A stretch of 59,168 nt of DNA from a virus (IMGVR_UViG_3300048837_000773:1-59168), one strand, 5' to 3'. Shown: positions 3,553-56,144, counted from the stretch's first letter. Translations and numbers: made by a program. Notes: generated by a model not told the origin, from the sequence alone.

Positions 3553-4062
3553 TTGAGGTGGGATATGGATCTGATGAAAGTACGGAACGAGTTATTGCCT
3601 CTCCAGCCCAGGGAGGCAGCCAGCATGCTACAAGCCCTTCCGGTGCATACGCTCCAGGGGCTGCAGGATCACGCAATGCTGGTAACGGCGCTGGGCTTGC
3701 GGCTGCGGATTCGCGAAACGCTGGCGATGACGGTGGATGAAGCAGAAGGGTTATCGGAAGCGTTGGTACAAGCGCTGACCCAGACGTACTATGCCGCGAT
3801 GAAACAGCGGTACTGCGTTCTTGGTTGGGATAATGCCTTCCCGGCCCTCCACATTCGTGAACGCGGGCAGGTGACTGCCCGATCTAACAGGAGTTTTGTT
3901 CTGACGTTGAAACTGGCGGCCGACGGCGCGGGGATCGACCCGGACCGGATCGATCAGGGAACCTGGCGGCAACTGGCATACCAGATTCACAGCAGGCCTG
4001 GCGGTTTCGCGGCATTCGTTTCTACGTTCGCACCATTTGCGACGCCGGGAAACCAGTACTGA
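3553..4062 (+). CDS. Truncated, catalytically dead paralog of the recombinase catalytic domain
   Basis: TLQGLQDHAML aligns with TLQGLRDYALI, and AGIDPDRI with AGLDPKKV; HxxR, LGH and Tyr motifs absent. Confidence 0.6.
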   Translation: MRWDMDLMKVRNELLPLQPREAASMLQALPVHTLQGLQDHAMLVTALGLRLRIRETLAMTVDEAEGLSEALVQALTQTYYAAMKQRYCVLGWDNAFPALHIRERGQVTARSNRSFVLTLKLAADGAGIDPDRIDQGTWRQLAYQIHSRPGGFAAFVSTFAPFATPGNQY

Positions 4063-4078
4063 TAACAGGCATTATCAG
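4059..4078. repeat. dif/Xer-like site 2
   Basis: ctgataa-caggca-ttatcag, overlapping the stop codon at 4060-4062. Confidence 0.75.
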
Positions 4079-4123
4079 CATACACGATCAACGATGGTCA
4101 CCATAGGAAAGGAGGAGAACGGG

Positions 4124-4552
4124 ATGATTTTTCGCAGTTGGCTATATGAGCCTACGACCTGGTTGGTGCTGGCGTTTCTGCTGGTTTTTGGCATCAGCTA
4201 CAACGCACTGGTAGCGCAGCTGGAGTCGATGCGGCATGACCGGGGGTATACGGCTTTTTTGGTCGTGGGTGGTTGTTTGGTCACACTGGCAGGGGGCAGC
4301 ATGCTGGCCGGTTTCGAGATGGGGGCATGGTTTACAGCCTGTTTCGCAGCCAGCGGTCTGCCGATGGTGATCGGCAGTTGGGCAAGGAATTCGCGGGCGC
4401 GGGTGGCCGAGGAGAAAAAGGTCGCCGATCTGGCGAAGGAGATGCTTAATGACGCCGAGGAAACCGAAAGGGTATGCGATCAATGCGGAGATTGCCCGCG
4501 CAATCAATGCGAATGGGGCGGCCAGGAGAGCGCTGCTGCGCATCCTAGATGA
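4124..4552 (+). CDS. Membrane protein (about 3 TM)
   Basis: ggagga RBS; hydrophobic segments. Confidence 0.6.
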   Translation: MIFRSWLYEPTTWLVLAFLLVFGISYNALVAQLESMRHDRGYTAFLVVGGCLVTLAGGSMLAGFEMGAWFTACFAASGLPMVIGSWARNSRARVAEEKKVADLAKEMLNDAEETERVCDQCGDCPRNQCEWGGQESAAAHPR

Positions 4553-4694
4553 GACGCCGGGGCCGCAGCTGACGGCAATGCTGATCGCAAAAGCGGCGGC
4601 GGCACTGGGTGAGAATCTGGACGCCCTGCGTGAGATTGAGAAGATTGCCGGGCGGCCGAGAAAGAGAACGTCTGAAACCGATAAGCAAGTTTGA
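4449..4694 (+). CDS. Hypothetical protein
   Basis: 81-aa ORF with aggag RBS; overlaps the upstream ORF. Confidence 0.5.
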   Translation: MTPRKPKGYAINAEIARAINANGAARRALLRILDETPGPQLTAMLIAKAAAALGENLDALREIEKIAGRPRKRTSETDKQV

Positions 4695-4760
4695 TCTTTT
4701 GAAATTATCCACGGGTCACAGGAGCCCACGCGAGGAACCCCTGCTTCGCGAAAATCCTGA

Positions 4761-5335: not shown

Positions 5336-5872
5336 ATGAACCGGTTTAAGTTGATCGTGGTTGGGATCGTGGCGCTGATTATTGCGGGCGCCATTTGCAC
5401 GGCGAGTGGGAGCAGCCTGATGAACAACACCAGCCACGCAATCACATCACAGGCCAACCTGGAAGGCATACGGACCATGCGCTTTATGGCTGGCACGATC
5501 GACCGCCAGGCGACGATGAACACGATTGCATTGGGGATTGTGGCGGTTGTCCTACTGGTAATGGCGCTGATCGTTGGGGCGCTGGTGGTGCGATTTATCT
5601 TGGTGGGTGGCGGGCGGTCTGGAAGCTCGCGTGCTGGATGGATGCCAGAACGCGGACGGATGCCGAAATTTATCAGCCTGGGGAGTGACGTACGGCCGTA
5701 CCTGGACCGGCTAAACCCGGAACAGAAAACCCTGCTGCTTGAAAGGCTGTACACCATTTGCTCTTACCTGGAGCGGGACCTGGGGAACCGGCGGATGGGC
5801 CGAGGCAGAGAACAGCGGATGACGGTATATGAGCGGGATGACGACTCCAATTCGGCGATCTTCTGGGGATAG
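5336..5872 (+). CDS. Membrane protein (2 TM)
   Basis: Abuts the upstream stop; two hydrophobic helices. Confidence 0.6.
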   Translation: MNRFKLIVVGIVALIIAGAICTASGSSLMNNTSHAITSQANLEGIRTMRFMAGTIDRQATMNTIALGIVAVVLLVMALIVGALVVRFILVGGGRSGSSRAGWMPERGRMPKFISLGSDVRPYLDRLNPEQKTLLLERLYTICSYLERDLGNRRMGRGREQRMTVYERDDDSNSAIFWG

Positions 5873-5876
5873 CGGT

Positions 5877-7832
5877 ATGCGTGGATTTGTGGCTATGGTG
5901 CTCTTCATCGGGTTTTGTTACCTGGTCTACCTGGCGGCGACCGGTGGAGAAGGGCTGCCGGAGCTGGAAGCGGTGAGCGGCGCGCTCGATACGCGGGCGG
6001 CGGCGTATGACGCAACCAGCCAGGCGGCCGAATTCCAGGCGGCGCAGATCCGGACGGCGCAAGCTATCCGTACGCAGGAAGCAGCAGCAGTGAGCCAGTG
6101 GATTGCGGCAACCGGACAGGCGGAGATGATGGCTATCACGCAGGCGGCAGGCCGAGAGACGGCCGCGGTGGCGATGCAGTTCACGCGTGAGGCATTCCAG
6201 TACACGGTGGAAGCAGGGCAAGCGAACCAGACCGCAACCGCGCGCGTGCTGGAGACTGTAACGGAAGCAACGAAAGCCGCGATGGACCTGCAGCAGACGG
6301 CGGATGTGGCGGGGCTGAACGCGTTTGCTACCGAGCAGGCGCAGATCAACCAGCGCGCGGAATTAGAGCTGCGCAAGAAGGCCATCGAAACCCGGACCGC
6401 GGAGAGTACGTGGTACCTGAAGCCATTGGGCTGGGTGGCGGTGGGGATTTTTATCGCAGTGGTGGTCTTCTGGCTGCTCAAGATGAAGGATGACACGAAT
6501 ATCAAGAGTATTCCCCGGGCTTTTACCGGGGAAACGGAAGCTGTTGTGGCGAAGGGAAAGGTAATCAACCCGGATCGGGGCATTGGACCGGTGATCGATC
6601 CGTACCATCCTGTGTCTTCTGGCACGCCGGACCAGATGCGGGTAACGCTGACGGACCAGGGCATGGCGGGAATCGGGCGGCTGACCCGGGCAGGATACCC
6701 GGTTTCGGCGCGCCAGGCGGCGGAACGGTTGGCGGGGCAGGCTGCTGCGGGCGCTCAGCAGCTCCCGGCGCAGGGGGAGGAGCTGCCCAGCGTGGCGCCG
6801 TGGGATCTGACGGGATGGACGGGCAGCACGCTGCCGTTGGGGATTGGCGTGGGGCGAACGGCGATTACGTTGAACCCGGAGCGGACGCCAAACCTGCTGG
6901 TGGCCGGTACGAGCCGGTCTGGGAAGACCATGATGGGGATGCGGCCGGTGATGGCCGAGGGGCTGGTGAGCGGCTGGCAAGTAATTTTGCTAAACGAAAA
7001 AGGCGGCGACTTCACGCCGTTGAAGAGTCACACAAACCTGGTAGCGGTGGACGGCGAGGCTGAGTCTGTTGCGGCTGTACTGGAAGGGATGGCGCGGGAA
7101 GTCAGCCGAAGGGACAGGATCCTCAAAGAGGCAGGTATATCGACGTATTACCGGCTGACGAATGCCAGCCAGGCGCTTGGACCGCGGGTGATGGTGGTGA
7201 TTGACGAGCTGGTAAGCCTGATCAACGGAGCCCCATCAAAGGCGATGAGCGACCACATCTGGAGGCTGGCGGTGGCCATCACCAGCAAATGCGGCGCAAT
7301 GGGAATGATGGTAGTGATCGGCAGCACCGATCCCAGTTACCGCACGCTGGGGCGGCAAGGGTTGACGGTACGGGATAACTGCGGGCGGATGGTGTTCCGG
7401 ATGCGCGATATGAGCAGCTCACGAGCTGCGCTGGATATCGGCGGGGCTGAGTCATTGACGGGCGCGCAGTTTATCGCGCAGCTCGACACGGAAGCGGTCA
7501 AAGGGGTGGCGTTCCACCCCGAGGATGAGGACGTGGCGCGGTTTTTGGCAAACCGGCCGGTGGCGGCGCTGCCACAACCGAGGTGGTTGGGTGGTGGATC
7601 CGTCGAGGGTTCGCAGCCCGAAATCAGCGTTTGGGAAGCGGAGACAATCGCGCTGGCGAAGAAGATTGAAGAGGTTTGGAAGGCGGGTGGGAGTAAGCGC
7701 GCCATGGCCCGGTCTGCTGGGTTTGAGTATGTCGGGAACCACTGCATCAAGATCGACCGAGCAATTGAATACCTGGTTGCTACTACTACTGCTAACGATG
7801 ATGATTTGGCCGAAAATGCGGAGGTTGGTTAG
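5877..7832 (+). CDS. Membrane-anchored FtsK/SpoIIIE (TraB-like) ATPase
   Basis: Two TM segments, LLVAGTSRSGKT Walker A, VMVVIDE Walker B, RDNCGRMVFR, C-terminal HTH-like SKRAMARSAG. Confidence 0.8.
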   Translation: MRGFVAMVLFIGFCYLVYLAATGGEGLPELEAVSGALDTRAAAYDATSQAAEFQAAQIRTAQAIRTQEAAAVSQWIAATGQAEMMAITQAAGRETAAVAMQFTREAFQYTVEAGQANQTATARVLETVTEATKAAMDLQQTADVAGLNAFATEQAQINQRAELELRKKAIETRTAESTWYLKPLGWVAVGIFIAVVVFWLLKMKDDTNIKSIPRAFTGETEAVVAKGKVINPDRGIGPVIDPYHPVSSGTPDQMRVTLTDQGMAGIGRLTRAGYPVSARQAAERLAGQAAAGAQQLPAQGEELPSVAPWDLTGWTGSTLPLGIGVGRTAITLNPERTPNLLVAGTSRSGKTMMGMRPVMAEGLVSGWQVILLNEKGGDFTPLKSHTNLVAVDGEAESVAAVLEGMAREVSRRDRILKEAGISTYYRLTNASQALGPRVMVVIDELVSLINGAPSKAMSDHIWRLAVAITSKCGAMGMMVVIGSTDPSYRTLGRQGLTVRDNCGRMVFRMRDMSSSRAALDIGGAESLTGAQFIAQLDTEAVKGVAFHPEDEDVARFLANRPVAALPQPRWLGGGSVEGSQPEISVWEAETIALAKKIEEVWKAGGSKRAMARSAGFEYVGNHCIKIDRAIEYLVATTTANDDDLAENAEVG

Positions 7833-7864: not shown

Positions 7865-7879
7865 CTCGAAAATGGATGA

Positions 7880-7899
7880 CTGATAAGGCTTCTTATCGG
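7880..7899. repeat. dif/Xer-like site 3
   Basis: ctgataa-ggcttc-ttatcgg(aact), intergenic. Confidence 0.8.
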
Positions 7900-7913
7900 A
7901 ACTGGAGAAGAGG

Positions 7914-10767: not shown

Positions 10768-13700
10768 ATGAGCATTGTTGATGAGGTAAAAGCACGGCTG
10801 GATATCCTTGATGAGGTGTCTGCAAGCGTGAAATTGAAGCGGGCCGGGAAAAATCACACTGGCATGTGCCCGTTTCACGATAACAAGCGCACGCCGTCGT
10901 TTGTGGTTTTTCCGGGCACCGGTACATGGCGGTGTTTTGGGAGCTGCAACACAGGTGGAGACATTATTAGTTTTGTGATGAAACGGGACGGGTGCGACTT
11001 CCAGGAGGCGCTGCGGAAACTGGCGGGTAAGGCGGGTGTGGAGATGCGGCCGATGAGCCCGGAAGAGCAGCGCAAGATCGCAGTGCGGCGCGAACGGGAA
11101 GAGATATTGGCCGTCATTGCAGAGTTCTTCCGCCGGCAAATGGGAGCGCCGGCAATGCTGCCAGTGCGGGCGGAAGATTTCAATGAGGGTTTGAAGTACG
11201 CGGTATACGAGCGCAAATGGGAAACCGAAACGATCCGCAACGCAAACCTGGGGTATTTTGGTCGTGACTGGGATGGCATTCGCCACGCGCTGGTTCTGGC
11301 AGAGATTGACCCGGAGTCGCCGGCGGCTGTGGCGTTTGTGGGATACCGGGGCGACGTGGCTGCCTGGGGGATGAAGTGGGGGGTCAAACCGGCTCCCGGA
11401 TGGGTGGAAGATAAGAAGATCCCGGCGATGCCGCCGAATATGTTGATGTACGTGCACCTGCACAGGGGCCGGTGCGTTTACATCAGCGGGCGCAAGCTGG
11501 AGACAGAGGACGGACACGCGAAGAGCTGGAACCCACCCAGCGAGCTGGTTGGTGAGCGGCAGGCGTACTTCAATCACATCTGGAGCGGGGAGAAAGACCC
11601 AAAGCACCTGGTGATTGTGGAGGGACAGGGAGACGCGGTAACACTGGCGCAATGGGGCATCCTGGCTGTTGCGCTGGCCGGGTCGGGAAATTTGCGGCCA
11701 GAAACCTTAACAAATGGTGAGGAAGAAGTTAGAACCGATAATGTTTTATTATCGGAACTGAAACGAAAGATCAAAAATGAATCATCGCGGGCGAAAGCAT
11801 CTACGCGGATCGTCGTGGCGCTGGACCAGGATGAGCCAGGGAAAAAGCTCCAGGCAAGCGTTATCGAGGCGCTCTGCAGCGCCGGAATCGGGCCAACGCA
11901 GATCGCTATGTTGGAATGGCCGGAAAAAGATGCAAATGCCTGGCTGCAGGCAGGGGGGACGGCCAAGGCCGCGGCCGACGCGCTGGCCAGCGCGGAAAGC
12001 CTGCTGGAGGCGCTTATTTTGAGCGCGGAACCGATTGGCGGGAAAAGCGACGATGAAGCGGTGCAGAAATTGTTCGCGGAGCTGGCGAAGCTGAACCCAT
12101 TCGAGATCGAGAAGGTGCGCGAGGTGGTGTGCGAGCGGTTAAATCTGCGCCGGCGGGTTTTTGACGGTTTGCTGAAAGCGGCGCGCCGGGATGCAGGAAA
12201 AGGCGACGATGGCCAACCGGCATATTTTGTGGAGGGTGGCCGAGTCTTCGCGCGCTCTTTCGACGCACGCGGAGGGGAGACCGTCGAGGCGCTGTGCAAT
12301 TTTTCTGCCTTCATCCAAGGCGACGTGCTGCGGGATAACGGGCAAGACGTGATTCGCGAGTTCCATATTCGCGGGGCGATCGGGAAGCATAACCTGCCTA
12401 CGGCGCGGGTCAAGGCAGAAGATTTTGCAAAGATGGAATGGCCTATCTCGGCCTGGGGGAGCCGGGCGATCATCGAGGCTGGCGCGCGCCGGCGGGATCA
12501 GCTTCGCGCAGCTATCCAACACTTGAGCAAGGAGGTAAAGCGGATGACGATCTATACACATACCGGATGGAGAGAGGTGGAGAACGGCAACGGGGCAAAG
12601 CGCATCTATCTGACGGCCGCGGGCGCCGTGGGTGGGGAAGCGGTGGACGTGGAACTGGACCGGGATTTGGATTTGTACCAGGTGCCGACGGTTGCCCAGA
12701 ACCCGGGCGAAGCTATGGCGCTGAGCCTGTCTTACCTGGATATCGCGCCTGACCGGATTGCGTTCCCGATCTGGGCAGGGATGTACCTGGCGCCACTGCG
12801 GGACCTGGTCAACGTGGCGTTTTCGCTGTGGATCTACGGCGCCAGTGGGACGATGAAGAGCACGTACGCGGCGCTGGGGCTGAATCACTACGGGCCGGGT
12901 TTCGACGATAAGCACCTGCCGGCCAATTTTACGGATACGGCGAACCGGCTGGAGCAAAAAAGCTTTGTGATCAAAGACGCGCCGCTGTTGATCGACGATT
13001 TTGCGCCACAGAAAGATCAGCGGTCCTATACGGAGTATACCCGGACGGCGCACCGGATCGTGCGCGCCGCGGGCAACCTGGCCGGTCGCGGCCGGTTGAC
13101 GGCCGACGCCAGTGCTCGCACAACGTATGACCCGCGCAGCCTGGTGATCATCACCGGCGAGGATTTGCCGGAAAGCGAAAGCCTGGTGGCCCGGCTGTAC
13201 GTGGTGGAGGTAAACCGGGGCGATGTGGATAAGGTCAAGTTGAGCTCCCTGCAGGGCAAGCGCGACCGGCTTTGCCACGCTATGAGCGGGTACCTGACCT
13301 GGGCCAGCGAGAGCTGGCCAGGATGGGTGGAAACAATACCAAAGGCATGGAGGGAGTATCGGCAGCGCGCTTTCGAGGCCGGGTATCACCTGCGGCTGCC
13401 GGAGGCGGTGGCAGGGCTCATGATCGGGTCGGAGATGGGGCTGCGATACGCCAGCGCACTGGGTGTGATTAGTTCTGTGGAGTATGCGCGGTACATGGAC
13501 CGCGCTTGGGCAGCGCTGCAGGATGGGGCATCGGCGATGAGCAACCGGGTGAAGGAAGAAAAACCGGAGGCGCTGTTCCTGCGAACGCTGAGCGATTTGA
13601 TCACGCAGGGGAAGATCACATTCAAGGGCACGAACGGGCTGACCAACCTGGGTGGGGATCCCACTCCATTGGCGGAGATGCTGGGCTGGTACGACCACGA

Positions 13701-13946: not shown

Positions 13947-14804
13947 ATGGGTACGCGGTTTTTTATCGATAGCAGCGAGGAGAAGCTGGACCAGGTGATT
14001 CGCGCTGTGCAGGCGGTTAACGATCTGCAGGGGAAGCGGGTGATCGAGTCGCAGCGGTTGGTATGCCTGGAAGTCGAGCGGGAAGATATTGCCCAGGCGC
14101 TGGAGACCCTGCTGGACTGCAGCGGCGTGCGGCACGTGCGGGCAACACCGGTGACGGCTGGCAAAGCCCAGCCTGAAGCGCAACAGGAAATGGCGGATCA
14201 GGAAGATCCGGCGGATCAGGAAGATCCGGCGGCGGCAGAGGAACCGATCATCATCGAGGAGGAACCGTTGACAAAGACTGTTTTGGACGTTTGTGAGATT
14301 TGTGGAGAGGCGCCGGTTTCGCGGCCAGGGGCAAAGATTTGCACATCGGTGAAGTGCCGGAAGGAACATAAACGGCTGTACATGAAGGAGTATTTCAACC
14401 GGAAGCGGCGTCAGGAAGCAGAACCTGGCTTATCGGACGAGGAACGCGAATTCGAGGCGCTGCTGGAGGCCGAAACGCTGGCCGAGCAGGTGCAGGAGGA
14501 GAAGGATCCGAAAAGTGAAGACCCGGAGGGCGAGGCGTTTGAAGACCTGATCGAAGAAGCGCCAGAGGATGATGAGTACACGCTGGCAGCGAACGGGGAG
14601 CGATTTAGCCGGGACGCGCTGATGATGGTGCTGCAACAGCGCCAGCTCCTTCCGGGTACGCTGCTGCGCAAGGGGAACCGGTTCTACACCGTCAATGGGT
14701 GCTATGAGCTGCGCCGGAAGTCGGTTTCGGTCAAAATTGCCAACGCTTTCCGCGATCGGGATGCTTACCGGAATAACTGGCAAAGCGGTAGTCAGAACCG
14801 ATAA
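13947..14804 (+). CDS. Acidic hypothetical protein with a zinc-finger-like segment
   Basis: CEIC...CTSVKC; E/D-rich. Confidence 0.65.
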   Translation: MGTRFFIDSSEEKLDQVIRAVQAVNDLQGKRVIESQRLVCLEVEREDIAQALETLLDCSGVRHVRATPVTAGKAQPEAQQEMADQEDPADQEDPAAAEEPIIIEEEPLTKTVLDVCEICGEAPVSRPGAKICTSVKCRKEHKRLYMKEYFNRKRRQEAEPGLSDEEREFEALLEAETLAEQVQEEKDPKSEDPEGEAFEDLIEEAPEDDEYTLAANGERFSRDALMMVLQQRQLLPGTLLRKGNRFYTVNGCYELRRKSVSVKIANAFRDRDAYRNNWQSGSQNR

Positions 14805-14817
14805 GCCAGGTTATCGG
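14798..14817. repeat. dif/Xer-like site 5
   Basis: (agaa)ccgataa-gccagg-ttatcgg; overlaps a stop codon and directly precedes ATG 14818. Confidence 0.85.
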
Positions 14818-15069
14818 ATGACCACGGTTTTGAATTGGAGCGTGACAGTGGGATCTACAAACAGTGATTATGTGACGCTTGGTTGGACCTGCCACGTGGG
14901 GCGGGAAGGGACCCGGGGCGGGTACCGCGCGTGGGCAAGAAAGGGTGATGAACGGATTAGCACCCGGTTGTACTTTGGGAAAGGGGCAAAGGGAAGGGCG
15001 CAACGCGAGCTGATGATGGCCATCAACCAGAAAGAAATGATTGGGGAACGTTCCGAACGTTCCGGTTGA
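14818..15069 (+). CDS. Hypothetical protein
   Basis: C-terminal part of ORF 14695-15069. Confidence 0.5.
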   Translation: MTTVLNWSVTVGSTNSDYVTLGWTCHVGREGTRGGYRAWARKGDERISTRLYFGKGAKGRAQRELMMAINQKEMIGERSERSG

Positions 15070-22656: not shown

Positions 22657-23358
22657 GTGGTAAAAGGTGGGAGGAGGGAAGGGGCAGGCCGACCGACCCT
22701 TGACGTAGAACGTCTGTATGTTACTCTGAGGCGGCCTCAGATCGAATGGCTGAAAGGCAAAGGGAACGCTTCAGAGGTTTTGCGGTCCCTGGTGGACCGC
22801 GCAATCGAGGAGGAGGGATCCGTGCACCTTTACGAAGTTGGCAAACCGTACACCGACCGAAAGCATTGGCCCGAACTGGCGCAGTATAACTACCGGTCCG
22901 GCGAACACGAGCTAATTCTGTTTTTCGACCGGCCCAGCTCCAAGGAGGTCCAGGCGGTGCGAAAAGATCCGTTTGAGCTGGCACTCTACACAGCAGGTAT
23001 GCAGATTGTGCTGCTTTATCGATTTGGCCAGGTAATCCCCTGGAGCGATGCGCCATACAGCATCCACCTTGTTCCACCCGAGCAGCGCACGCTGCCGTTG
23101 CCGACCGGGTCAGAAGAGCAGGCCTGGCTGCACGTGGTTCTGGTGGACGCGTCCAATGGTATTGTGCGTGCACTGCGCTCGCTAACAATGTCCGCGGAAT
23201 TCACCCAGGCGCTGCACCAGTCGATCCGCGCGCAGGCGGATATGCCGTTTACGCGCGCCAACTACAACGGCGAGCTGGAAGCGCTGTTCGCGGAGAACTC
23301 ATCTGCGGACCTGGCCAGTATGGCGCAGATCCGGTACACGAGTAATCAGGACCGATAA
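22657..23358 (+). CDS. Hypothetical protein with N-terminal GGxRxGAGR and RHH-like DNA-binding segment
   Basis: GGRREGAGRP..LYVTL..NASEVLRSLVD. Confidence 0.65.
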   Translation: MVKGGRREGAGRPTLDVERLYVTLRRPQIEWLKGKGNASEVLRSLVDRAIEEEGSVHLYEVGKPYTDRKHWPELAQYNYRSGEHELILFFDRPSSKEVQAVRKDPFELALYTAGMQIVLLYRFGQVIPWSDAPYSIHLVPPEQRTLPLPTGSEEQAWLHVVLVDASNGIVRALRSLTMSAEFTQALHQSIRAQADMPFTRANYNGELEALFAENSSADLASMAQIRYTSNQDR

Positions 23359-23371
23359 GAGCAATTATGAG
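23352..23371. repeat. dif/Xer-like site 7
   Basis: ccgataa-gagcaa-ttatgag; spans stop 23356-58 and ATG 23367. Confidence 0.65.
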
Positions 23372-28414: not shown

Positions 28415-28435
28415 TTCTGATGTAGGATAGAACAC

Positions 28436-36181: not shown

Positions 36182-36465
36182 AACCAACGTATGAGTATAA
36201 GGGATGGGAGGGAAGCGTGAAGCATATACCGCATAACAATCACCACAAGCCAGGAACGTGGAAGGGGCTGATGGTGCCAATCGATGAAATAGGGAAACGC
36301 TATCGAAAGAGCGCAAGTATGACGTGCCCGGAGTGTGGTCAGATCAGCTCACTATCGGGGCACGATATTGCCGACGATGGGATAGTTTCTCCGAGCGTGG
36401 TTTGCCCATACGAGTTGTGCCATTTCCATGAATTCATCAAACTGGAGGGGTGGGACCCTGTCTGA
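36178..36465 (+). CDS. Small Cys/His hypothetical protein
   Basis: CPECG..H..SPSVVC..CHFH. Confidence 0.55.
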   Translation: MKPTYEYKGWEGSVKHIPHNNHHKPGTWKGLMVPIDEIGKRYRKSASMTCPECGQISSLSGHDIADDGIVSPSVVCPYELCHFHEFIKLEGWDPV

Positions 36466-36481
36466 TAAGTGTTCTTATCGG
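36462..36481. repeat. dif/Xer-like site 10
   Basis: ctgataa-gtgttc-ttatcgg(agct); overlaps a stop codon. Confidence 0.8.
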
Positions 36482-36505
36482 AGCTAAAATCCGTGGTTTC
36501 GGTGG

Positions 36506-36659: not shown

Positions 36660-38471
36660 GTGATGAAGATGCAGATCAGGATCAACCAGGTGCAGGGACA
36701 GGTGCGGCGGGAGACGCTGGCCGGCCGCGATTACCTGGTGGCGCCGGTGGTGGCCATCCGCGCGGGGGTGCTGAATAACGCGCTGGCGCCGCTGGAGGAG
36801 ATTGGGCGGTTTGTCGATGCCTGGAACGGGATCCCCGTTCCGCTCGGTCATCCAAAGGTGAACGGCCTGCCGGTTTCGGCCAATTCTCCTGAGCTGGAAG
36901 CCCAGGCGGTGGTGGGGCGCTTCTGGCGGGCTGAGCTGGTGGATGACCGCCTGGTGGGGGAGATCTGGATCGATGTGGAGAAGGCGCGGGCGCTGGGGGG
37001 CGATGCGCTGACGGTGCTGGAGCGCCTGGAGAAGGGCGAGGGGATCGAGGTCTCGACCGCGTATTTCTGTGACCTGGAGGAGAAGCCGGGCACATTCAAC
37101 GGGCAGCGCTTTTTCGGGATCCAGCGCAACCTGCGTCCGGATCACCTGGCGCTGCTGTTACACCAGATCGGGGCGTGTTCCTGGAAGGACGGCTGTGGCG
37201 TGCCAAGATTGAACGAACTGCAGACGAACGAACAGCATACCGGAGTGATGATCGCGCTGTACCCATCCGCGGAAGCGGCTGCACAGCTCGCGCTGAGCGG
37301 AGAGGGAGGACTGCCGGAGGATGCAACCATCACGCCGGCAGGGGAAATCCATTTGACGTTGGCGTACCTGGGCGATTCTGCGGAGCTGAAGCCGGAGTAC
37401 CACGGAAGCCTGCTGCAGCGGGTGATGGAGTGGGCGAAGATGACGCCAATTGTACGGGGGAACGTCAGCGGGATTGGGCGCTTCACCACACCCACCACGG
37501 ATGGAATGCAGGCGGTTTTCTTGCTGTACGACTGCGGTTACCTGGAGCACCTGCGCTGGTGGCTGACAGATGGCCTTCCGGTCTCTACACCTAACCGCGG
37601 GTTTATCCCGCACATTACGCTGGCCTACGTGCCGGCGGATGCACCTACCCCTGGCCTGGCACCGGCGCCGCAAGAGCTGGTTTTCGACCGGGTTGGGGTG
37701 GCATGGGGCGGGCAGGTCACTCTGTTCGATCTGCAGGGGGAGGCGGCCATCGCTTCGAATGAGGCGGGGGAGGAGACCGGGATGCAGACCAAAAATGGGT
37801 TTAACCCGGTGAGCCTGGCACGAAAGGCCTTGCAGGGGCTGGCCAGGGCGCTGGGATGGACTGAAACACTGACGGAAGAAACGCCGGCAGTAAACGATGC
37901 CCCTGGGGCGGGGGAACAATCTGAGGAGGTGGCGATGGATCGGGAAGGATTGATTGCGAAGCTGGTTGGGAATGCGAACTGCCCGTTTGATCAGGCAGAG
38001 CTGCAGGCGATGCCAGACAGCGCGCTGACCAAGCTGGAGCAGAAGCTGGAGCATGGATGCGGCACTCCGGCCGCCAACGAAGCAACTGTTGAAGCGGCTC
38101 CGGTGACCAACGAACCAGCCACTGCGGTGGCTGCGGTCGAGCTGACTGTGCCGGCGGAGCTGCAGGAGGTAACAAACCTTCTGCGGGAACTGGGCGGGGT
38201 GCAGGGGGTGAAAGCGGCGCTGGAGACCATCCAGGCGAACGCGAACCTGCGGAAAGGTGAGCTGACTGCCGAGCTGAAGGCCAACGAGCGCTGCGCGTTC
38301 TCGGAAGAGGATCTGCAGGCGATGCGTGTGGACCAGCTGGAGAAGCTGGCCAGCAGCCTGAAGCCGGCCGATTATGGCGGGCGCGGCGGACCGCGGGGCA
38401 ACGCGAGAACCGAGGTGCACCAGGTGCCCGAACCGCCGAAGATCTTGCTGGCAGAACCTGATACGGACTGA
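36660..38471 (+). CDS. DUF2213-type prohead protease/scaffold with an inserted 2H phosphoesterase domain
   Basis: EVSTAY, NLRPDHLALL, GACSWKDGCG; then HLTL and HITL motifs; acidic scaffold-like tail. Confidence 0.75.
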   Translation: MMKMQIRINQVQGQVRRETLAGRDYLVAPVVAIRAGVLNNALAPLEEIGRFVDAWNGIPVPLGHPKVNGLPVSANSPELEAQAVVGRFWRAELVDDRLVGEIWIDVEKARALGGDALTVLERLEKGEGIEVSTAYFCDLEEKPGTFNGQRFFGIQRNLRPDHLALLLHQIGACSWKDGCGVPRLNELQTNEQHTGVMIALYPSAEAAAQLALSGEGGLPEDATITPAGEIHLTLAYLGDSAELKPEYHGSLLQRVMEWAKMTPIVRGNVSGIGRFTTPTTDGMQAVFLLYDCGYLEHLRWWLTDGLPVSTPNRGFIPHITLAYVPADAPTPGLAPAPQELVFDRVGVAWGGQVTLFDLQGEAAIASNEAGEETGMQTKNGFNPVSLARKALQGLARALGWTETLTEETPAVNDAPGAGEQSEEVAMDREGLIAKLVGNANCPFDQAELQAMPDSALTKLEQKLEHGCGTPAANEATVEAAPVTNEPATAVAAVELTVPAELQEVTNLLRELGGVQGVKAALETIQANANLRKGELTAELKANERCAFSEEDLQAMRVDQLEKLASSLKPADYGGRGGPRGNARTEVHQVPEPPKILLAEPDTD

Positions 38472-38472
38472 A

Positions 38473-38492
38473 CCGGTAATCGACGTTACCGG
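38473..38492. repeat. dif/Xer-like site 11
   Basis: (gaa)ccggtaa-tcgacg-ttaccgg, right after a stop codon. Confidence 0.75.
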
Positions 38493-38528
38493 ACGTAATT
38501 CAACTATTTGCAGGAGTGTGGAGGAACT

Positions 38529-40547: not shown

Positions 40548-40911
40548 GCGTAACCCGAACGCACGCGTAGATGCAGAACAGGTAAGAGATATTATCAGCA
40601 CTGGCCTGACGGATGGGCAGGTGAACGCGATGATCAACACCGCGCACCTGGTCATCGAAGAACGGCTGGGGGATAAGCGTCTGAGCGCGAGCCTGCTCGG
40701 GCAAATCGAGCTGTGGCTGGCTGCGCATTACGTGTGCATGCGGGATCCGCGTAAAAAACAGGTGAAGGTCGACGATACGTCCGTCACATACCAGGGCGAA
40801 ACCGGGATGGGGCTTAAAGCGACAAGCTACGGCCAGCAGGCTATGGACCTGGATCCTACCGGAACGCTGGCCAGCACCAGCATGAAGCGGGCGTCGCTAC
40901 GGGCGGAGTAA
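40540..40911 (+). CDS. Head-tail adaptor (DUF4054-like)
   Basis: IELWLAAH, GLKATSYGQ..LD. Confidence 0.7.
   Translation: MAERNPNARVDAEQVRDIISTGLTDGQVNAMINTAHLVIEERLGDKRLSASLLGQIELWLAAHYVCMRDPRKKQVKVDDTSVTYQGETGMGLKATSYGQQAMDLDPTGTLASTSMKRASLRAE
40579..40598. repeat. dif/Xer-like site 12 (near the 5' end of the adaptor gene)
   Basis: (agaa)caggtaa-gagata-ttatcag. Confidence 0.6.
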
Positions 40912-43385: not shown

Positions 43386-43400
43386 GACCTGAAATTAGAG

Positions 43401-43420
43401 CTGATAAGAACTGTTAGCGG
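43401..43420. repeat. dif/Xer-like site 13
   Basis: ctgataa-gaactg-ttagcgg, intergenic. Confidence 0.75.
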
Positions 43421-43431
43421 TAGGAGGATGC

Positions 43432-46468: not shown

Positions 46469-47805
46469 TGGCGTACCAACTGCGGCTTACAGACGGCACG
46501 AATACGCTGTTTACCTTTTCGGATGGGGTGAACTGCATCATCCAGGCGGGGATGGGCGAGTCGCCGGCGCTGCCCACGGAAGACGTGGCGTGGGTGGAGG
46601 AGGTGGTGCCGATCCTGTTGATGGGCGGGCTGACCACGATCCAGAACAATATGCGAACGATCAACCGGACGCTGGCGGATGCACGCTATAAAGAGACGGC
46701 GCGCGCCGGCGGGCATATCTACCTGGAGAAGAGCGCAAGCGATACGGATGGATGGTGGCGGGCGAAGATCCGCGGCGGGGAGCTGAGTGGATACTCCATC
46801 GACCAGGCCATTCGAACGGGGAAGATGCTGGTCCAGCTTACGGTGGAGCGGGTGGATTACTGGGAGGGTGCGCTGACGAGTGTGACGGTATCGAACCGGC
46901 ACGGGACGAACGCGACCGGGTTGACCGTATATAACCACATGGACGGGGACGCGGACAATTACGTGCAGCTCGCAGCGAACCAGATCACCGGCGATCTGCC
47001 CACGCCGGCATTGATCGAACTGACCAACCTGTTTGCCGGAAACGTGAATTTCGTGTGGATTGGGCATAAATTTACGGGCGCACCGGCAACATTTTCGCCG
47101 GTTTACGAGGGTGAAGCAGCGATCGGTAAGAGCGGCACAACCTATACGGATGCATCGAACGGGCGGTATGAGGCGCTGCAGGCGTTCAGCGGAATAACTA
47201 CACAACTGCTTACCTGGACGCTGAGCACAGCGCAAATGGACGCGGCAGCGGGGGGATGGTTCCACGTGTTTGTGCGCCTGGCTTCTGCAAGCGCTTTTCC
47301 TCACGTAACGCGGTTCGAGCTGGCGCTGACACAGGGCGCCGGGCGCGTGTGGGCGTCGGGAACACATATGCCTGGCGACTCCTTTATGACGCTGTACGAC
47401 CTGTTCTTGATGCGCCTGCCACCATGGCTGCCAGGCGCGACCGGGAGCGGCTCGCTGACGATGGAGCTGCTGGCGCTGCAGGCGAGTGGGGCCACGGCGT
47501 ACTACAACGTGGATTACGTGTACCTGATGCCGGCAGATGGCTTCCGGCACTACCGGGTAGAGTCGTACGCGATTGGACAGAACCAGCGCCTGGTGGATAA
47601 CGGGCCAGACGATGAGGTGTACCGGGATGCCGGGAATGGGACGGGGAAGATTGGGAACGTGATTGCCGCGGGGGATCCGATTATGCTGCGGCCGGGCAAG
47701 CTGCAACGGTTGTACTTCCTGGTGCAAGACATCAACGGAAACAGCCAGGTAGCGAGAACCGCGTCCGCTAAGATCTCTTATCGGCCCAGGCGGCGGGATC
47801 TATGA
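46468..47805 (+). CDS. Distal tail-like protein
   Basis: Directly after tape measure, beta-rich. Confidence 0.55.
   Translation: MAYQLRLTDGTNTLFTFSDGVNCIIQAGMGESPALPTEDVAWVEEVVPILLMGGLTTIQNNMRTINRTLADARYKETARAGGHIYLEKSASDTDGWWRAKIRGGELSGYSIDQAIRTGKMLVQLTVERVDYWEGALTSVTVSNRHGTNATGLTVYNHMDGDADNYVQLAANQITGDLPTPALIELTNLFAGNVNFVWIGHKFTGAPATFSPVYEGEAAIGKSGTTYTDASNGRYEALQAFSGITTQLLTWTLSTAQMDAAAGGWFHVFVRLASASAFPHVTRFELALTQGAGRVWASGTHMPGDSFMTLYDLFLMRLPPWLPGATGSGSLTMELLALQASGATAYYNVDYVYLMPADGFRHYRVESYAIGQNQRLVDNGPDDEVYRDAGNGTGKIGNVIAAGDPIMLRPGKLQRLYFLVQDINGNSQVARTASAKISYRPRRRDL
47765..47784. repeat. dif/Xer-like site 14 (3' end of the distal tail gene)
   Basis: ccgctaa-gatctc-ttatcgg. Confidence 0.75.
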
Positions 47806-51005: not shown

Positions 51006-51206
51006 ATGAGCGAGAACATCACACAGGCCAGGGACCGGTACATCCAGCAGCGCGAGCAGGCGCTGGCGCGACAGCACGAGCTGGAGAAGGAGCTGGTGCG
51101 GGTGCAACAGCTCACCATCGCGTTGAGCGGGGCCATCGAAGCCCTGGACGCGCTGCTGCAGGAAGGGCGGGTGCAGCAGGAAAACAGAACCGATAAGACA
51201 AGTTAG
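51006..51206 (+). CDS. Small coiled-coil protein
   Basis: ggagg RBS. Confidence 0.6.
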   Translation: MSENITQARDRYIQQREQALARQHELEKELVRVQQLTIALSGAIEALDALLQEGRVQQENRTDKTS

Positions 51207-51209
51207 CGG
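51190..51209. repeat. dif/Xer-like site 15
   Basis: (agaa)ccgataa-gacaag-ttagcgg; overlaps a stop codon. Confidence 0.8.
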
Positions 51210-51220
51210 TAGGAGGCGGT

Positions 51221-52948
51221 ATGGCTGGATTTGGCGAGAAGGCGATTTTTGTTTGGAACAATGAGAAGATCAACAAAAACGCGGCGGTGGTCACATCGCT
51301 GTTGGCAAATGCTGGCTTCGAGGCAGCGCACCTGCACGCGGTTAATGTATGGACCTGGAAGACGGCTTCGCGCCTGGCGCTGGTCCAGACACTGCGTGCG
51401 GCCGGAATCCAGGCGTATGGATCGGCGGGTGTATATGGATATAAGCCAGAGGAGGAGGGGCGCCTGGCGGGGGAGCTGGTACGCGATTTGGGCCTGGCCG
51501 GGTTTATCTTCGACGCCGAAGGTATCTTCGACGCTCAACCTACGGCCGCGGCGAACGCGATCACGATGCTCAGGGCATACAAGCAGGTGACAAGCCAGCC
51601 GGCCGCCTGGTGCTGGTGGCCGTTCTACAAAAACCCGTACCCGCCTTTTCAATCGTACCATCCGGTAGAAGTACTCAAGGCCGCGATGCGGATCGCGGAC
51701 GTGGGTATGCCAATGGCGTACTGGTCGTGGGGGGATACGGCGCCGGACGCGGTGCGCTACCTGAATGCTGTGTGGCCACAGTGGAGGGCGGTTACGAATA
51801 AGCCGCTGGTGATCGCCGGGCGGGCGTGCGTTGGCGACGGCGGGACCGCGCGGCCGGCGGCGATGCTGGCGTTTGAGGCGCGGGCGCGCGAACTGGGCGC
51901 AATCGGGATGACCTGGTGGTCGATGGAGCACGCGCTCGACAAGGTGAATCTGCCTGGCGTATGGGAAGCGCTTGGCCAGACAATGCAAATGGGAAAAGGC
52001 GGAGGAGGTGTACCGGTGGTGGAGAATCACTACAAAAAAACGGCAATGGGGCTGATTACAAAGAAGCCCGGGTGGACAAATAAAGAATTTGCGTTCATCG
52101 TTGGGGAAGCGGGGGAATCGTGGTACAAGCCTAACCCGGATCTGAAGGCAATCGAGGAGCAGGCAGCGGCAGAGGGGAAACCGTTCCTGGCGCTGTACCG
52201 TTTCAGTGTCGATTTCTACATCCGGCAGCAGTACCCGATGGACGTGGATCTGTGGCCTACCCTGGCGCAGGATGAGCCATACCAGATGTGCATCCGCGCG
52301 ATCGGAAACCGGAACGTGAAGGCGGTGATCGTCGAGGTGACAAACGAGAAGAATCACGATGGCAAGGAGCAAGACAAGGACTGGATCTCGTTTGCATCGA
52401 AGATCTTCCTCGGGCGTGTGGGGGATTGGCTGGCGCGGAATAAGCCCGGTGTGCCATTGCTGCTGGCCAGCTCGAACGAGTTTATCCAGAGTAAGGCGCC
52501 GAATATGAACATCTGGGCGCATACCTACGCGAGCTGCATCACGCAGCCGGCGCAATTGGCGCTGCTGGATGAGAGCTTCCCGGGCAGAACCGATAAGCCA
52601 AATTATCTGGGGAACTCGGATGGGTGGAAGTTTTGGGCGCATTACACCTTCAAAAGTAACGGGGACCGCCTGGCGATCTTCAACGGGGACCGGGCAGCGC
52701 TGGAGCGCTGGCTGAAGGTGGAAAACGGACAGGAGCCTGAGAAGCCGGGAGAACCGGAGAAGCCGCCTGTACCAACGCCGGATCCAGAGCTTGAAAAAGC
52801 GGTGAAGGCGTTGACGGATAGAACCGCGGCGCTGGGACAGGAAATCCAGGCGTTGAATGGAAAGATCGAGGGAATCGGGCAACGGCTGGCGGCGCTGGAA
52901 TCGCGCTACCAGGCGCATACACACAAGATTACGGTCGAAAAGCCGTAA
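51221..52948 (+). CDS. Putative endolysin with two glycoside-hydrolase-like TIM-barrel domains
   Basis: GFIFDAE and MPMAYW in domain 1; GH25-like WKFWAHY..FNGDRAAL in domain 2; Pro-rich linker and coiled-coil tail. Confidence 0.55.
   Translation: MAGFGEKAIFVWNNEKINKNAAVVTSLLANAGFEAAHLHAVNVWTWKTASRLALVQTLRAAGIQAYGSAGVYGYKPEEEGRLAGELVRDLGLAGFIFDAEGIFDAQPTAAANAITMLRAYKQVTSQPAAWCWWPFYKNPYPPFQSYHPVEVLKAAMRIADVGMPMAYWSWGDTAPDAVRYLNAVWPQWRAVTNKPLVIAGRACVGDGGTARPAAMLAFEARARELGAIGMTWWSMEHALDKVNLPGVWEALGQTMQMGKGGGGVPVVENHYKKTAMGLITKKPGWTNKEFAFIVGEAGESWYKPNPDLKAIEEQAAAEGKPFLALYRFSVDFYIRQQYPMDVDLWPTLAQDEPYQMCIRAIGNRNVKAVIVEVTNEKNHDGKEQDKDWISFASKIFLGRVGDWLARNKPGVPLLLASSNEFIQSKAPNMNIWAHTYASCITQPAQLALLDESFPGRTDKPNYLGNSDGWKFWAHYTFKSNGDRLAIFNGDRAALERWLKVENGQEPEKPGEPEKPPVPTPDPELEKAVKALTDRTAALGQEIQALNGKIEGIGQRLAALESRYQAHTHKITVEKP
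52590..52609. repeat. dif/Xer-like site 16 (inside the lysin gene)
   Basis: (agaa)ccgataa-gccaaa-ttatctg. Confidence 0.7.
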
Positions 52949-53512: not shown

Positions 53513-53569
53513 AGACAATCGGGAGCGGGGGCCGGGATCGGCCTCCGCTCCACCAAACAAGGATGGGCT

Positions 53570-55834
53570 ATGGCAAACCGCGCGGCAGAGATTAGAGCAA
53601 CAGTGCAGAGCCAGTCCCCCGGCGCCGTGGTGACCGCACGGGGACGTAACTGGATTGAGCACGCGCTGGTCGATGGTCGGCGCGTGCTCGACGCCGGCCT
53701 CGGGCCGCTCCACGTTGCCGGGACTGAGACAGAGATCGATACGGCCTGGCGGGCCACAACCGGCGCGTGGCAGTACCAGATGGTGCTGGCCGACTACAAC
53801 GCCTACGCCCGTAGCCAGCTAAATGCGGGTGACACGGTACAGTACCGCGACCCAGGGAGCGGCGAGACCGTCACATTCCAACCATTGGCGCTAAATTGGG
53901 TCAACGAGGTTGGTTCGCGGCAGCAGATCACGCAACCGCAGAGCGTGATGGCGACGGTTGCCGATGACGTGCTGCGGTGGCAAAACGGGTATGGCGCTGG
54001 ACGGCATTTTCGGTGGCAGGCGCAAAGTGCGCGGCTGCAGAAGCTATTGACGATCGACAGCGCGGCCAACTTGCCTGCTCCAGCAGCATGGCTAACGGGG
54101 ACGAGGTGGCTGGAGCTTGAATTTATCGTTAAATTTTCGGCAGGGATTGATCCCTGGCTGGATGGGGTTAAATGGTCGCGCGGCACGACGCCAGTACGGA
54201 CGGCCAACCGTGTCGAGTTCCGCTCCATTGCCAGCGGAGCCGCGCTGTGGCACCTGGACTACCCGCGCGCCTGGGACAGCGCGGGGAATGAGGTTGTTGG
54301 GCAGTACGAGTTACGCAGGCAGTCGAGCAGTTACTACATCACCGTGCGCGTGCCGCAGGCATGGCTGCAGTCGGCTGTGTACCCTGTGTACATCGACCCG
54401 ACGATTGAGGTGTCGGTGAGTGCGGGCAGCAACGACGGCCATTGGTGGGAGGGCACCACCGATTTTGATGCTGACTCCTCATATATGCTCGTCGGCAACG
54501 GGAACCAATGGGGGCGGGGGGCGATGAACGGCTTTGCACGCTTTGTAGGGTTGGCTGGCCTGCAAGGCATGACCGTGGACAGCGCTTACCTGCGTTACAC
54601 GGCTAATGAGTCGTTTAGCACAGCGACCTGTCGTATTCGGATACGGGCTGTGGCGGCGGATAATCCCGCTGCGCCAACCAGCTACGCTCAGGCCGAGGGC
54701 GCAACGCGCACCACGGCCTACGTGGACTGGTCGGTGCCTGCGGACGTCAACAACGTCGCAAAAAACAGCCCAGACATTGCCGCTGTGGTGCAGGAGGTGG
54801 TCAACCGCTCGGGATTCGGCGGCGCACTCATCGTCTACCTCGAAGATAACGCTTCTGACAACAACGCCAGGAGGTACGTTGGCCCGTACGACTGGTCGGC
54901 TACCAATGCGCCGTTGCTGCACATAGAGTACTCGGAGGGATTGCCAGAGGGGATTAGCGCATCAGTCACACAAATGGTCCCGACCTTTTCCATGAGCAGC
55001 ACGGGACGCGTGGGCGCTAGAGGATCTGTGGCTTCTATAATCCGTAGACCGGGCGCTTCCAGCGCCGCAGCGCCTCGGGTAACTGGGTTTGCTCAGGGAA
55101 CAATGCAGATCGTCGCCACCAGCAAAGCAGTCCAGGTTCGCGCAAACGGATCCCGGGCCGTGGTCCTGACTCGGCCAGCAAACACGAATATGGCGGCAAC
55201 GCGGGTTCATGTTTCTGCGGCGCCAGGATCCGTCCAGAGGATGAATACCAGCGCTGCTGCCCAGGTGGCCGCTGGCGGATCACGGACCACCGTTTTCCAA
55301 ATTCAAACCCTGGCAGGTGGAGGGGTGCAGATACGCGGGTCTGCGGAAGCGGTTTTAAGGTTCGTCCTGGCTGCGGCTGGAACGGTGGGAGAACCAGGTG
55401 AAACAATCACAGGGCAGATCCACCGAGTGCTGGAGAAACTCGATACGAGTTACCGCGTGCAATTGGGCGCGCCTGCATTGACCAATCAGGCGATTCACGC
55501 ATCCAGCAGCAGCAGGACAGCCCAGGTCAAGACGTTCGGCAGGACGACCATTGAAAGGGTTATGGCGGAGATGGAATCCACCGCATCCGCTGGCGTGCAG
55601 GTCACTGGATGGCTGGTAGAGGAGCAGGGATTTGAACGAGATCGCACGATGCAGGCGGGGGTTTCAGGGTACCTGGCCTATACGATTGCGAAATTGCTCA
55701 AGGCTGCGGTGGCGCGCGCGGGAGCGTTTGGGCCCAATGCGCAGCTCGTTTTGACTATCGTCGAGCCCGTCATGCTGGCGGTCATGGAACAACAAGAAAC
55801 GACGCTCCATTTGAGCGAAAGCGAGGGTCAATGA
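53570..55834 (+). CDS. Large virion-associated protein (DNRLRE-like domain)
   Basis: AVYPVYIDPT, TVDSAYL, PLLHIEY; Ala/Thr-rich C-terminus. Confidence 0.55.
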   Translation: MANRAAEIRATVQSQSPGAVVTARGRNWIEHALVDGRRVLDAGLGPLHVAGTETEIDTAWRATTGAWQYQMVLADYNAYARSQLNAGDTVQYRDPGSGETVTFQPLALNWVNEVGSRQQITQPQSVMATVADDVLRWQNGYGAGRHFRWQAQSARLQKLLTIDSAANLPAPAAWLTGTRWLELEFIVKFSAGIDPWLDGVKWSRGTTPVRTANRVEFRSIASGAALWHLDYPRAWDSAGNEVVGQYELRRQSSSYYITVRVPQAWLQSAVYPVYIDPTIEVSVSAGSNDGHWWEGTTDFDADSSYMLVGNGNQWGRGAMNGFARFVGLAGLQGMTVDSAYLRYTANESFSTATCRIRIRAVAADNPAAPTSYAQAEGATRTTAYVDWSVPADVNNVAKNSPDIAAVVQEVVNRSGFGGALIVYLEDNASDNNARRYVGPYDWSATNAPLLHIEYSEGLPEGISASVTQMVPTFSMSSTGRVGARGSVASIIRRPGASSAAAPRVTGFAQGTMQIVATSKAVQVRANGSRAVVLTRPANTNMAATRVHVSAAPGSVQRMNTSAAAQVAAGGSRTTVFQIQTLAGGGVQIRGSAEAVLRFVLAAAGTVGEPGETITGQIHRVLEKLDTSYRVQLGAPALTNQAIHASSSSRTAQVKTFGRTTIERVMAEMESTASAGVQVTGWLVEEQGFERDRTMQAGVSGYLAYTIAKLLKAAVARAGAFGPNAQLVLTIVEPVMLAVMEQQETTLHLSESEGQ

Positions 55835-56118
55835 AGATCAATACGTATGACGTGGGAGATAGGCCAAAAATCACGGGGCAGTTTTACCGTGAGGGAGAAC
55901 TGGTAGATCCCGACTCGGTGGCAGCTACTGTGAGAGATCCGGCCGGCATGGTCACCACGCTGGAAGTAGGCACGGGGCTGGAGCGCGTATCGGTTGGAAC
56001 GTACAGCTTCACAATCGACATCACTGCCAGCGGTACCTGGTTTTATCGGCTTGCCGGCAGTGGCGCACACCAGGCGGCAGCGGAGGGAGCTTTCCGAGTG
56101 CGGCCAAGTCGCGTTTAA
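55831..56118 (+). CDS. Small beta-rich phage protein
   Basis: ATGA overlap; LVDP..GTY..GTWFYR. Confidence 0.6.
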   Translation: MKINTYDVGDRPKITGQFYREGELVDPDSVAATVRDPAGMVTTLEVGTGLERVSVGTYSFTIDITASGTWFYRLAGSGAHQAAAEGAFRVRPSRV

Positions 56119-56124
56119 TCGCGG

Positions 56125-56144
56125 CTGATAACGGTACTTATCGG
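56125..56144. repeat. dif/Xer-like site 17
   Basis: ctgataa-cggtac-ttatcgg, intergenic. Confidence 0.8.

Follow-up and report, generated by a model that had tools for sequence, protein, structure and literature searches.

An evenly spaced array of palindromic, Xer-like sites across a temperate tailed phage genome

The window analysed here is the whole of a 59,168-nucleotide stretch of viral DNA (IMGVR_UViG_3300048837_000773:1-59168) holding a complete-looking prophage of ~58.9 kb. It carries 17 copies of one ~30-bp site, in which inverted 12-bp arms (YAGWWC-YGNTAA) flank a variable centre, and these copies are distributed around the phage genome far more evenly than chance would place them. 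The sites are copies of a single protein docking site in duplex DNA. Judged by its sequence, the site has the build of an Xer/Cre-type tyrosine-recombinase core site, and the phage encodes an XerC/D-family recombinase that is a candidate binder.

Anatomy of the sites

The exact core GATAA-N6-TTATC occurred nine times in the window, against 0.01 expected. Sixteen sites with a 6-bp centre (N6) scored 24-38 with a position matrix, for which the best score in 20 simulated sequences was mostly <12 and at its highest 20.5; the 17th site, with a 7-bp centre (N7), was located within the primase gene. The sequence of the centre differed at every copy. The set of 17 excludes three further places: 50561 (a chance-level score of 9.2), 233 (an AATAA variant without flanks) and the palindrome at 28471-28487 (GGTAA-N7-TTACC). 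The sites were as follows, with no strand assigned.

848..877, site 1: core 855-870; full flank on the right; after the stop of the minus-strand gene 875-1435
4054..4083, site 2: core 4061-4076; overlaps the stop of 3553-4062
7875..7904, site 3: core 7882-7897; intergenic, with a start codon (7914) 16 nt further on
11730..11760, site 4: core 11737-11753; 7-bp centre, both flanks full; within the primase gene
14793..14822, site 5: core 14800-14815; 13947-14804 (SQNR*) terminates at its TAA
19277..19306, site 6: core 19284-19299, a GGTAA variant; gives the stop of 18881-19288 (NKNR*)
23347..23376, site 7: core 23354-23369; 22657-23358 (NQDR*) stops, and 23367-24020 begins with its ATG, inside this site
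28390..28419, site 8: core 28397-28412; non-coding, between an early-operon terminator and the lysis/packaging genes
31955..31984, site 9: core 31962-31977; junction of the large terminase (TerL) and portal genes; the most conserved position among relatives
36457..36486, site 10: core 36464-36479; after the stop of 36178-36465
38468..38497, site 11: core 38475-38490, GGTAA/TTACC; protease/decoration junction; conserved in provirus G001
40574..40603, site 12: core 40581-40596; 41 nt into gene 40540-40911
43396..43425, site 13: core 43403-43418; tail-tube/chaperone junction; conserved in G001
47760..47789, site 14: core 47767-47782; final 40 nt of gene 46468-47805; no good flank
51185..51214, site 15: core 51192-51207; overlaps the end of 51006-51206 (NRTDKTS*)
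52585..52614, site 16: core 52592-52607; within gene 51221-52948
56120..56149, site 17: core 56127-56142; intergenic, ahead of the phosphoesterase gene

Across 64 sites from 11 contigs, the inner TAA/TTA was invariant (64/64) and C at -7 occurred together with G at +7 in 62 of them. The first base of the centre was A in one of 57 sites, and its last base was T in none of 57. Further out, a YAGWWCY flank (at least six of seven positions matching, with a chance expectation of ~1% per side) was found on at least one side of 44 of the 61 listed sites, on the left in 23, on the right in 15 and on both sides in 6; the 17 sites with neither flank include 4 that are mis-registered N7 sites. The corresponding counts in the window were left 9, right 5, both 1 and none 2, one of the last being a mis-registered N7 site. 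The full site is thus an inverted 12-mer repeat around a free centre, with one full and one short arm in most copies.

Spacing and placement in the window

Measured on the circle closed at attP, the gaps between sites ranged from 1400 to 5043 bp (mean 3467), with 3672 bp over the att junction, in agreement with the values of 1.4-5.0 kb and ~3.7 kb given in a preliminary description of this DNA. The coefficient of variation of the gaps was 0.27, versus 0.92 under random placement. Permutation bore out the claim of near-regular spacing: none of 200,000 trials of uniform random placement, and none of 200,000 draws of 17 random gene junctions from the 71 available, was as even. Under the junction null, a largest gap of no more than 5043 bp had P = 1e-5.

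Placement with respect to genes was also non-random. Eleven of the 17 cores touched non-coding DNA or a stop or start codon, a count reached in 0/20,000 trials of a null with mean 1.4. The preliminary description had put the count at 13 of 17, which is obtained when the doubtful open reading frames 4037-4552 and 31822-32046 are set aside; its report that four proteins end in translated sites (SQNR*, NKNR*, NQDR* and NRTDKTS*) was verified in every case. Four sites lay inside coding sequence, as had been stated, at 11737, 40581, 47767 and 52592. Without them, the gaps at these places would be 6.9, 4.9, 7.8 and 4.9 kb, respectively. Selection for boundary placement had also been proposed; the placement at junctions is real, but may merely reflect avoidance of coding sequence. 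The proposed partition of the genome into functional modules agreed broadly with the Pfam and PHROG annotation, but three of the boundaries cut genes, and function-coherent blocks would result from cutting any syntenic phage genome into 3.5-kb pieces.

Conservation in related phages and restriction to phage DNA

Provirus G001 came from a scan of IMG/VR with the strict motif. Its gene order follows that of the window between primase and integrase (25-77% protein identity), its GC content is 50% (58.6% in the window), and it carries 13 sites. Terminase-based searches added G007, G008, G009, G010, L151, L156, L189 and others, and a search of genomes of the class Anaerolineae added the G197 prophage, the sites of which all have 7-bp centres. 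Sites in the relatives were chosen by matrix score together with a regular expression; position 836 of G009 (score 12.4) and position 15588 of G001 were dropped, and sites scoring as low as 11.5 were accepted in G009, where some bias towards evenness is possible.

In seven related contigs, the motif is retained, in the same or a variant form, with window-like spacing. The median internal gap over eight contigs was 3.7 kb, 95% of the 42 gaps in the seven relatives were between 2 and 6.5 kb, and each contig was more even than chance (P from <0.0001 to 0.04). Because the evenness is far beyond chance, recurs in seven relatives and is completed by in-gene sites that fill gaps, selection for periodic coverage, as the preliminary description had proposed, is well supported.

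Individual positions were also conserved, in the primase gene, after TerL, at the protease/decoration junction, 41 nt into a head-tail gene and at the tube/chaperone junction. The position of site 4 was matched in the primases of both G001 and G009, and site 12 recurred in G001 as an identical 16-mer at the equivalent position. The motif itself has drifted by lineage, to GGTAA..TTAGC in G009, to CATAA..TTATT in L189 and to N7 centres with other flanks in G197 and L223.

The sites were restricted to phage DNA. In the metagenome-assembled genome (MAG) of the L189 host (G011, 4.5 Mb and possibly incomplete), all six full-pattern matches were on the prophage contig, and a reversed-pattern control gave two. 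Mimicry of a host dif site was therefore rejected, G011 having no match outside the prophage contig and G197 having none with the N6 pattern, as were host repeats of the repetitive extragenic palindrome or miniature inverted-repeat transposable element type. Within IMG/VR, the strict pattern gave multiple matches only in G001 and one each in the G007, G008 and L156 contigs; its remaining matches were singles elsewhere. Dispersed palindromes in two TerL relatives, L180 and L182, proved to be local GC-rich hairpin clusters, not arrays. Terminase relatives were found in MAG contigs of Anaerolineae, which gives a lead to the host, short of proof. One 105.6-kb metagenome contig (L267-L269) had three copies of a small-terminase-like (TerS-like) gene ~38.3 kb apart and no dispersed sites, and has the appearance of a concatemer assembled from a ~38-kb phage genome.

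A phage-encoded Xer-family recombinase as the candidate binder

Three genes of the window bear directly on the identity of the binder.

2458..3522, plus strand: second tyrosine recombinase (XerC/D family by Pfam and NCBIfam, distinct from the integrase); candidate binder
5829..7832, plus strand: FtsK/SpoIIIE-like ATPase (Pfam/PHROG), in the early operon with the recombinase
29499..30110, plus strand: small-terminase-like helix-turn-helix (HTH) protein, named by its position overlapping TerL; rival candidate binder

The two inverted 12-bp arms around a centre of 6 bp (16 sites) or 7 bp (1 site) correspond to the ~11-bp arms and 6-8-bp centre of Xer sites. ATAA-centre-TTAT, described as the motif that determines XerC/XerD binding and cutting at the Xer sites of Acinetobacter plasmids (PMC11705084), was present in 11 of the 17 window sites, with the remainder one base off (GGTAA, GCTAA, TTAGC, TTACC). 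Because this anatomy is of the Xer type and the phage encodes both an XerC/D-family recombinase and an FtsK-like ATPase, the recombinase is our best guess for the protein that binds the sites, although we would put this assignment at somewhat under an even chance.

The recombinase has an intact catalytic motif (R..HxxR..H..Y) and Pfam matches to Phage_integrase and a SAM-like N-domain; its best NCBIfam matches were XerD, XerA and XerC at E 1e-26 to 1e-29, below the equivalog cut-offs. Homologues 54-56% identical were found in G009 and L205, in both of which a site lies directly behind the stop codon of the gene. In the G197 prophage, the homologue is on contig C124, which holds two sites with 7-bp centres. 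FtsK-like genes were present in the window, G008, G009 and G197.

Under this reading, a dimer of the recombinase would occupy every site. Centres were all unique within each of seven genomes, and with all centres different no site could recombine with another inside one genome; the only partner would be the matching site on a second copy, whether on a sister, on the neighbouring unit of a concatemer or on a closely related genome co-resident with it. The recombinase might instead simply stay on the site without catalysis. In either case, selection keeps the array even, such that no DNA is more than ~2.5 kb from a site, and this coverage could serve register-preserving crossovers and resolution or, alternatively, genome architecture.

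The fullest form of this proposal, in which the enzyme, perhaps driven by the FtsK-like motor of the phage, uses the evenly spaced sites as "address-labelled" lox/dif-like elements for same-junction crossovers between co-resident genomes, seems to us rather unlikely. If true, it would constitute an enzymatic, register-preserving engine for module exchange and for the rescue of damaged or targeted genome segments. Modular exchange among phages is usually ascribed to rare illegitimate or short-homology recombination; a recombinase-type array with unique centres would be a built-in exchange device at fixed junctions. If the sites do not recombine, some process would need bound protein within ~2.5 kb of every phage base, since the largest gap is capped and sites are forced into long genes. 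A literature search on regularly spaced palindromes in phage genomes returned nothing relevant, and no such coverage requirement for tailed phages.

Several observations weigh against a recombinase acting at the sites. Unique centres are what chance alone predicts. Only one centre was shared between genomes, within a conserved gene, while other equivalent sites differed in their centres. Co-occurrence of recombinase and sites rests on four phages, the other site-bearing contigs ending short of the recombinase region. Six contigs of the class Anaerolineae carried recombinase homologues (E 1e-42 to 1e-85) but no ATAA-N6/7-TTAT in the 2.6-40 kb examined, and the recombinase family is therefore not tied to the sites. 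A role in recombination alone also leaves the even spacing unexplained.

Mosaic breakpoints were not enriched at the sites. With breakpoints defined as gene-level homology breakpoints against G001, G007, G008 and G009, 7 of 28 were within 150 nt of a site, as compared with 14 of 71 junctions (P = 0.27), in a comparison of low power among distant relatives (25-77% protein identity). The link between mosaicism and the sites that the preliminary description had raised is not supported by this comparison. Public sequencing runs, which gave only short contigs of this phage, contained no site-to-site joints, and the loose ends were not at sites, which carries no information either way. One observation fits module exchange: the sole block that G010 has in common with the window, TerS-TerL, lies between its sites at 4593 and 7039. 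Of the enzyme-driven boundary model put forward in that description, the enzymatic part is plausible from the Xer-type anatomy, the phage recombinase and the FtsK-like protein, but the enzyme-driven shuffling of modules is not supported.

Other candidate binders and roles

The main rival binder is the small-terminase-like HTH protein, which would dock at the sites as genome-wide pac- or cosB-like marks for packaging or condensation. Homologues of its N-terminal domain were encoded by 13/13 site-bearing contigs that reach the packaging genes, a figure that arises partly by construction, as contigs were found with TerL or TerS queries. The domain is strongly conserved (25 invariant columns), and it was present in mosaics with little further resemblance to the window (G010, L229, L223 and G197, the last with another TerL). 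In the ESM Atlas it adjoins HTH clusters of the phBC6A51 type (0.94). The best-conserved position is that of the site directly behind TerL, the sole site in L213. However, the domain was also found in 13 of 14 site-free loci, among them L219, at 55% identity and without a site in 20 kb. For a dimer of an HTH protein, 30 bp is a long site, and fold searches with a model of the TerS-like protein returned no structural match to confirm it as a small terminase (Foldseek E at least 3; VIA Z at most 4.1). We consider this protein an unlikely binder.

A transcriptional function would have the phage repressor occupy in-operon sites as stoperator-type roadblocks that halt RNA polymerase in the lysogen. 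Sites do occur within long operons, where they occupy the little space that separates one gene's stop codon from the ribosome-binding site of the next, and the prediction of just three strong sigma-70-like promoters (2115, 22095 and 36506) implies that the operons are long. Stoperators are likewise described as spread across temperate phage genomes (PMC9283540; PMC6550527). However, the early promoter at 2115-2143 has no site, the site-sharing window, G009 and L205 have unrelated immunity genes, and L213 has a repressor homologue and almost no sites. The sites are moreover palindromic, and the window's left and right flank counts (9 and 5) indicate no polarity with transcription. A function as roadblocks is improbable.

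Related ideas were rejected. As operators of the immunity repressor, the sites would be expected at the early promoter, which lacks one, and the immunity genes of site-sharing phages are unrelated. An apparent polarity with genes (15/17 by the matrix; 30 agreeing versus 8) was withdrawn, the matrix having been built on an assumed orientation and absorbing gene context. As for promoters, a strong promoter-like match was found within 50 nt of only one of the 17 sites (36506-36533).

A role in loading a sliding clamp of the ParB/KorB/Noc type, or some other protein that spreads and thereby coats the genome, would account for the spacing, because a spreading protein with a reach of a few kilobases would need even spacing with a capped largest gap. 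Two distant TerL relatives, G002 and G003, contain 9-11 dispersed copies of TATTTCCYRGGAAATA, which is identical at 15 of 16 positions to the Noc-binding consensus as reported (PMC7383237), and their genes include those of canonical ParB-family proteins, which match solved ParB/Noc chains at E 1e-29. The window, in contrast, lacks a canonical ParB: PF02195 had no match, its only related protein is an IbrB-like ParB/Srx protein (27199-27852), and a profile from the ParB proteins of relatives matched only that protein, at E 0.04. The ParB-like proteins of site-bearing relatives fall in different families, G010 has a separate parS-like palindrome, TGTTTGCGCGCAAACA, in three copies besides its GATAA sites, and the split form around a free centre does not resemble parS. 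We regard this explanation as very improbable.

G002 (L191-L193) and G003 (L194-L196) have only TerL in common with the window, and no tyrosine recombinase. The copies of TGTTTGCGCGCAAACA in G010 are at 995 and 11531 of L197 and at 190 of L198; a ParB-like gene (624 aa) lies just downstream of the first, and the other two are each 36 nt ahead of a GATAA site, forming a repeated composite element. The dispersed sites were also rejected as the centromere for the ParA of the window, since that centromere is the array of 12-nt tandem repeats at 10563-10658, behind the gene for the ribbon-helix-helix (RHH) partner of ParA.

Hairpins in RNA or single-stranded DNA, serving as signals for RNA processing, antitermination or priming, are largely refuted and scarcely credible: the arms could pair as a 7-bp stem and sites do lie between cistrons, but the 64 sites showed no covariation (Watson-Crick pairs in 22/64 and 44/64 at the two variable stem positions, against shuffle means of 23.7 and 42.4), G009 keeps GGTAA with a TTAGC that is unable to pair, and a conserved stem with a free loop is the reverse of a structural RNA. 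Because the half-sites do not covary, the site is a protein site in duplex DNA and not a hairpin.

The prophage and other features of the window

The prophage is bounded by 49-nt att cores within tRNA-Pro, neither of them assigned a strand.

78..126: attL core, a 49-nt repeat of the 3' part of tRNA-Pro
59071..59119: attR core, within tRNA-Pro (59072-59147, minus strand)

Gene functions were taken from Pfam and PHROG annotation. Leftward immunity genes at the start of the window include an HTH_3 repressor (1680-2078), and the rightward early operon comprises an RHH gene (2181-2372), the second tyrosine recombinase, a tRNA-like gene, the FtsK-like ATPase, ParA (9248-10099) and a DnaG-type primase (10768-13929). 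These are followed by DUF5131, an exonuclease and a block of SNF2 helicase, PAPS-reductase, GNAT and ParB-like genes. The right part holds the genes for lysis and packaging and for head and tail, together with a phosphoesterase and the integrase (57913-59028). Megablast of 12 kb of the window against GenBank phages gave no match, and the repressor had no close relative in IMG/VR.

The palindrome excluded from the 17 stands at a position of its own.

28471..28487, no strand assigned: extra palindrome GGTAA-N7-TTACC, just past the promoter-like TTGCGA-17-TATAGG; conserved in G001

At 28441-28487 of the window and at ~12240-12290 of G001, GGTAATTT..TATTACCTAAA follows this promoter-like sequence, which was read by eye, ahead of the lysis/packaging genes. 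The conserved element is possibly a late operator or a cos element.

Other features were noted along the genome. In the immunity switch (2051-2160), CTGTCATATGACAG, a perfect palindrome of 14 bp, covers the region in which the repressor starts, and the promoter TTGACA-17-TATTAT has the palindrome GATAATAGC-N6-GCTATTATC between its hexamers. The tRNA-like gene of the early operon, at 4761-4829, resembles tRNA-Trp(CCA). A partition locus of plasmid type is present in this integrated prophage at 9248-10658, consisting of ParA, a 130-aa RHH protein and, behind this pair, about eight 12-nt direct repeats; the gene pair was also found in G008 and G009, with similar repeats in G009. A strong terminator (22037-22066) is followed directly by a near-consensus promoter (22095-22123). 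The block at 23989-27852 (SNF2 helicase, PAPS-reductase/DUF3440, GNAT and IbrB-like ParB/Srx-HTH), which is missing from G001, looks like a DNA-modification or anti-defence module. Ahead of the protease gene (36506-36634), a near-consensus promoter is followed by a terminator-like hairpin with a 15-bp stem.

Comparison with known systems

The dif site and the attachment sites of integrative mobile elements exploiting Xer (IMEX) have the inner core and geometry of the window sites. They occur once per chromosome, or twice per integrated element, as compared with an array of 17. Among the matches listed in a looser IMG/VR pattern scan were small proviruses of 6-16 kb (L006-L131; for example, L030/L031, L048/L049 and L073/L074) bounded by GATGCCGATAA-N6-TTATCGGCATC, an 11-6-11 dif-like arrangement; a tyrosine recombinase gene adjoined the site in three of five that were checked, and these proviruses are probably Xer-dependent.

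For a non-catalytic function, the closest analogues are stoperators and the sites of KorB, ParB and Noc. RK2 carries 12 OB sites. As described, KorB-OB of RK2 and the ParB-parS and Noc-NBS systems likewise place dispersed palindromes on a ~60-kb mobile replicon or a chromosome, with protein acting over a kilobase range (PMC11790492; PMC7383237), whereas the window lacks a ParB-CTPase and a free centre divides its site. Stoperators of Cluster A mycobacteriophages are similar to the window sites in that dozens of copies lie mostly in short intergenic gaps and the motif varies between phages (PMC6550527). Unlike the window sites, they are described as asymmetric, oriented with transcription, bound by the repressor and matched to the early-promoter operator. 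Even arrays may be a general, unrecognised feature of phage genome design, of which G002 and G003 would represent a ParB-linked version.

For the recombinase reading, the closest known system is the multiple Xer sites (xrs/pdif) of Acinetobacter plasmids. There, as in the window, a replicon has many dif-like sites with arms, a 6-bp centre and ATAA/TTAT, the centres differ and the sites border gene blocks of a few kilobases (PMC11705084). Differing centres on those plasmids are described as blocking intramolecular events, and matching centres on co-resident plasmids as giving cointegrates (PMC11705084). Even spacing, genome-wide or otherwise, is not mentioned in the sections drawn on from the papers cited for the Acinetobacter Xer (PMC11705084), stoperator or KorB/ParB/Noc systems, and the replicon of the window is a tailed temperate phage. 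The Acinetobacter sites are described as flanking accessory modules that vary between plasmids, whereas breakpoints were not enriched at the sites of the window. Finally, host XerC and XerD act on the plasmid sites, while the phage encodes an Xer-family enzyme of its own.

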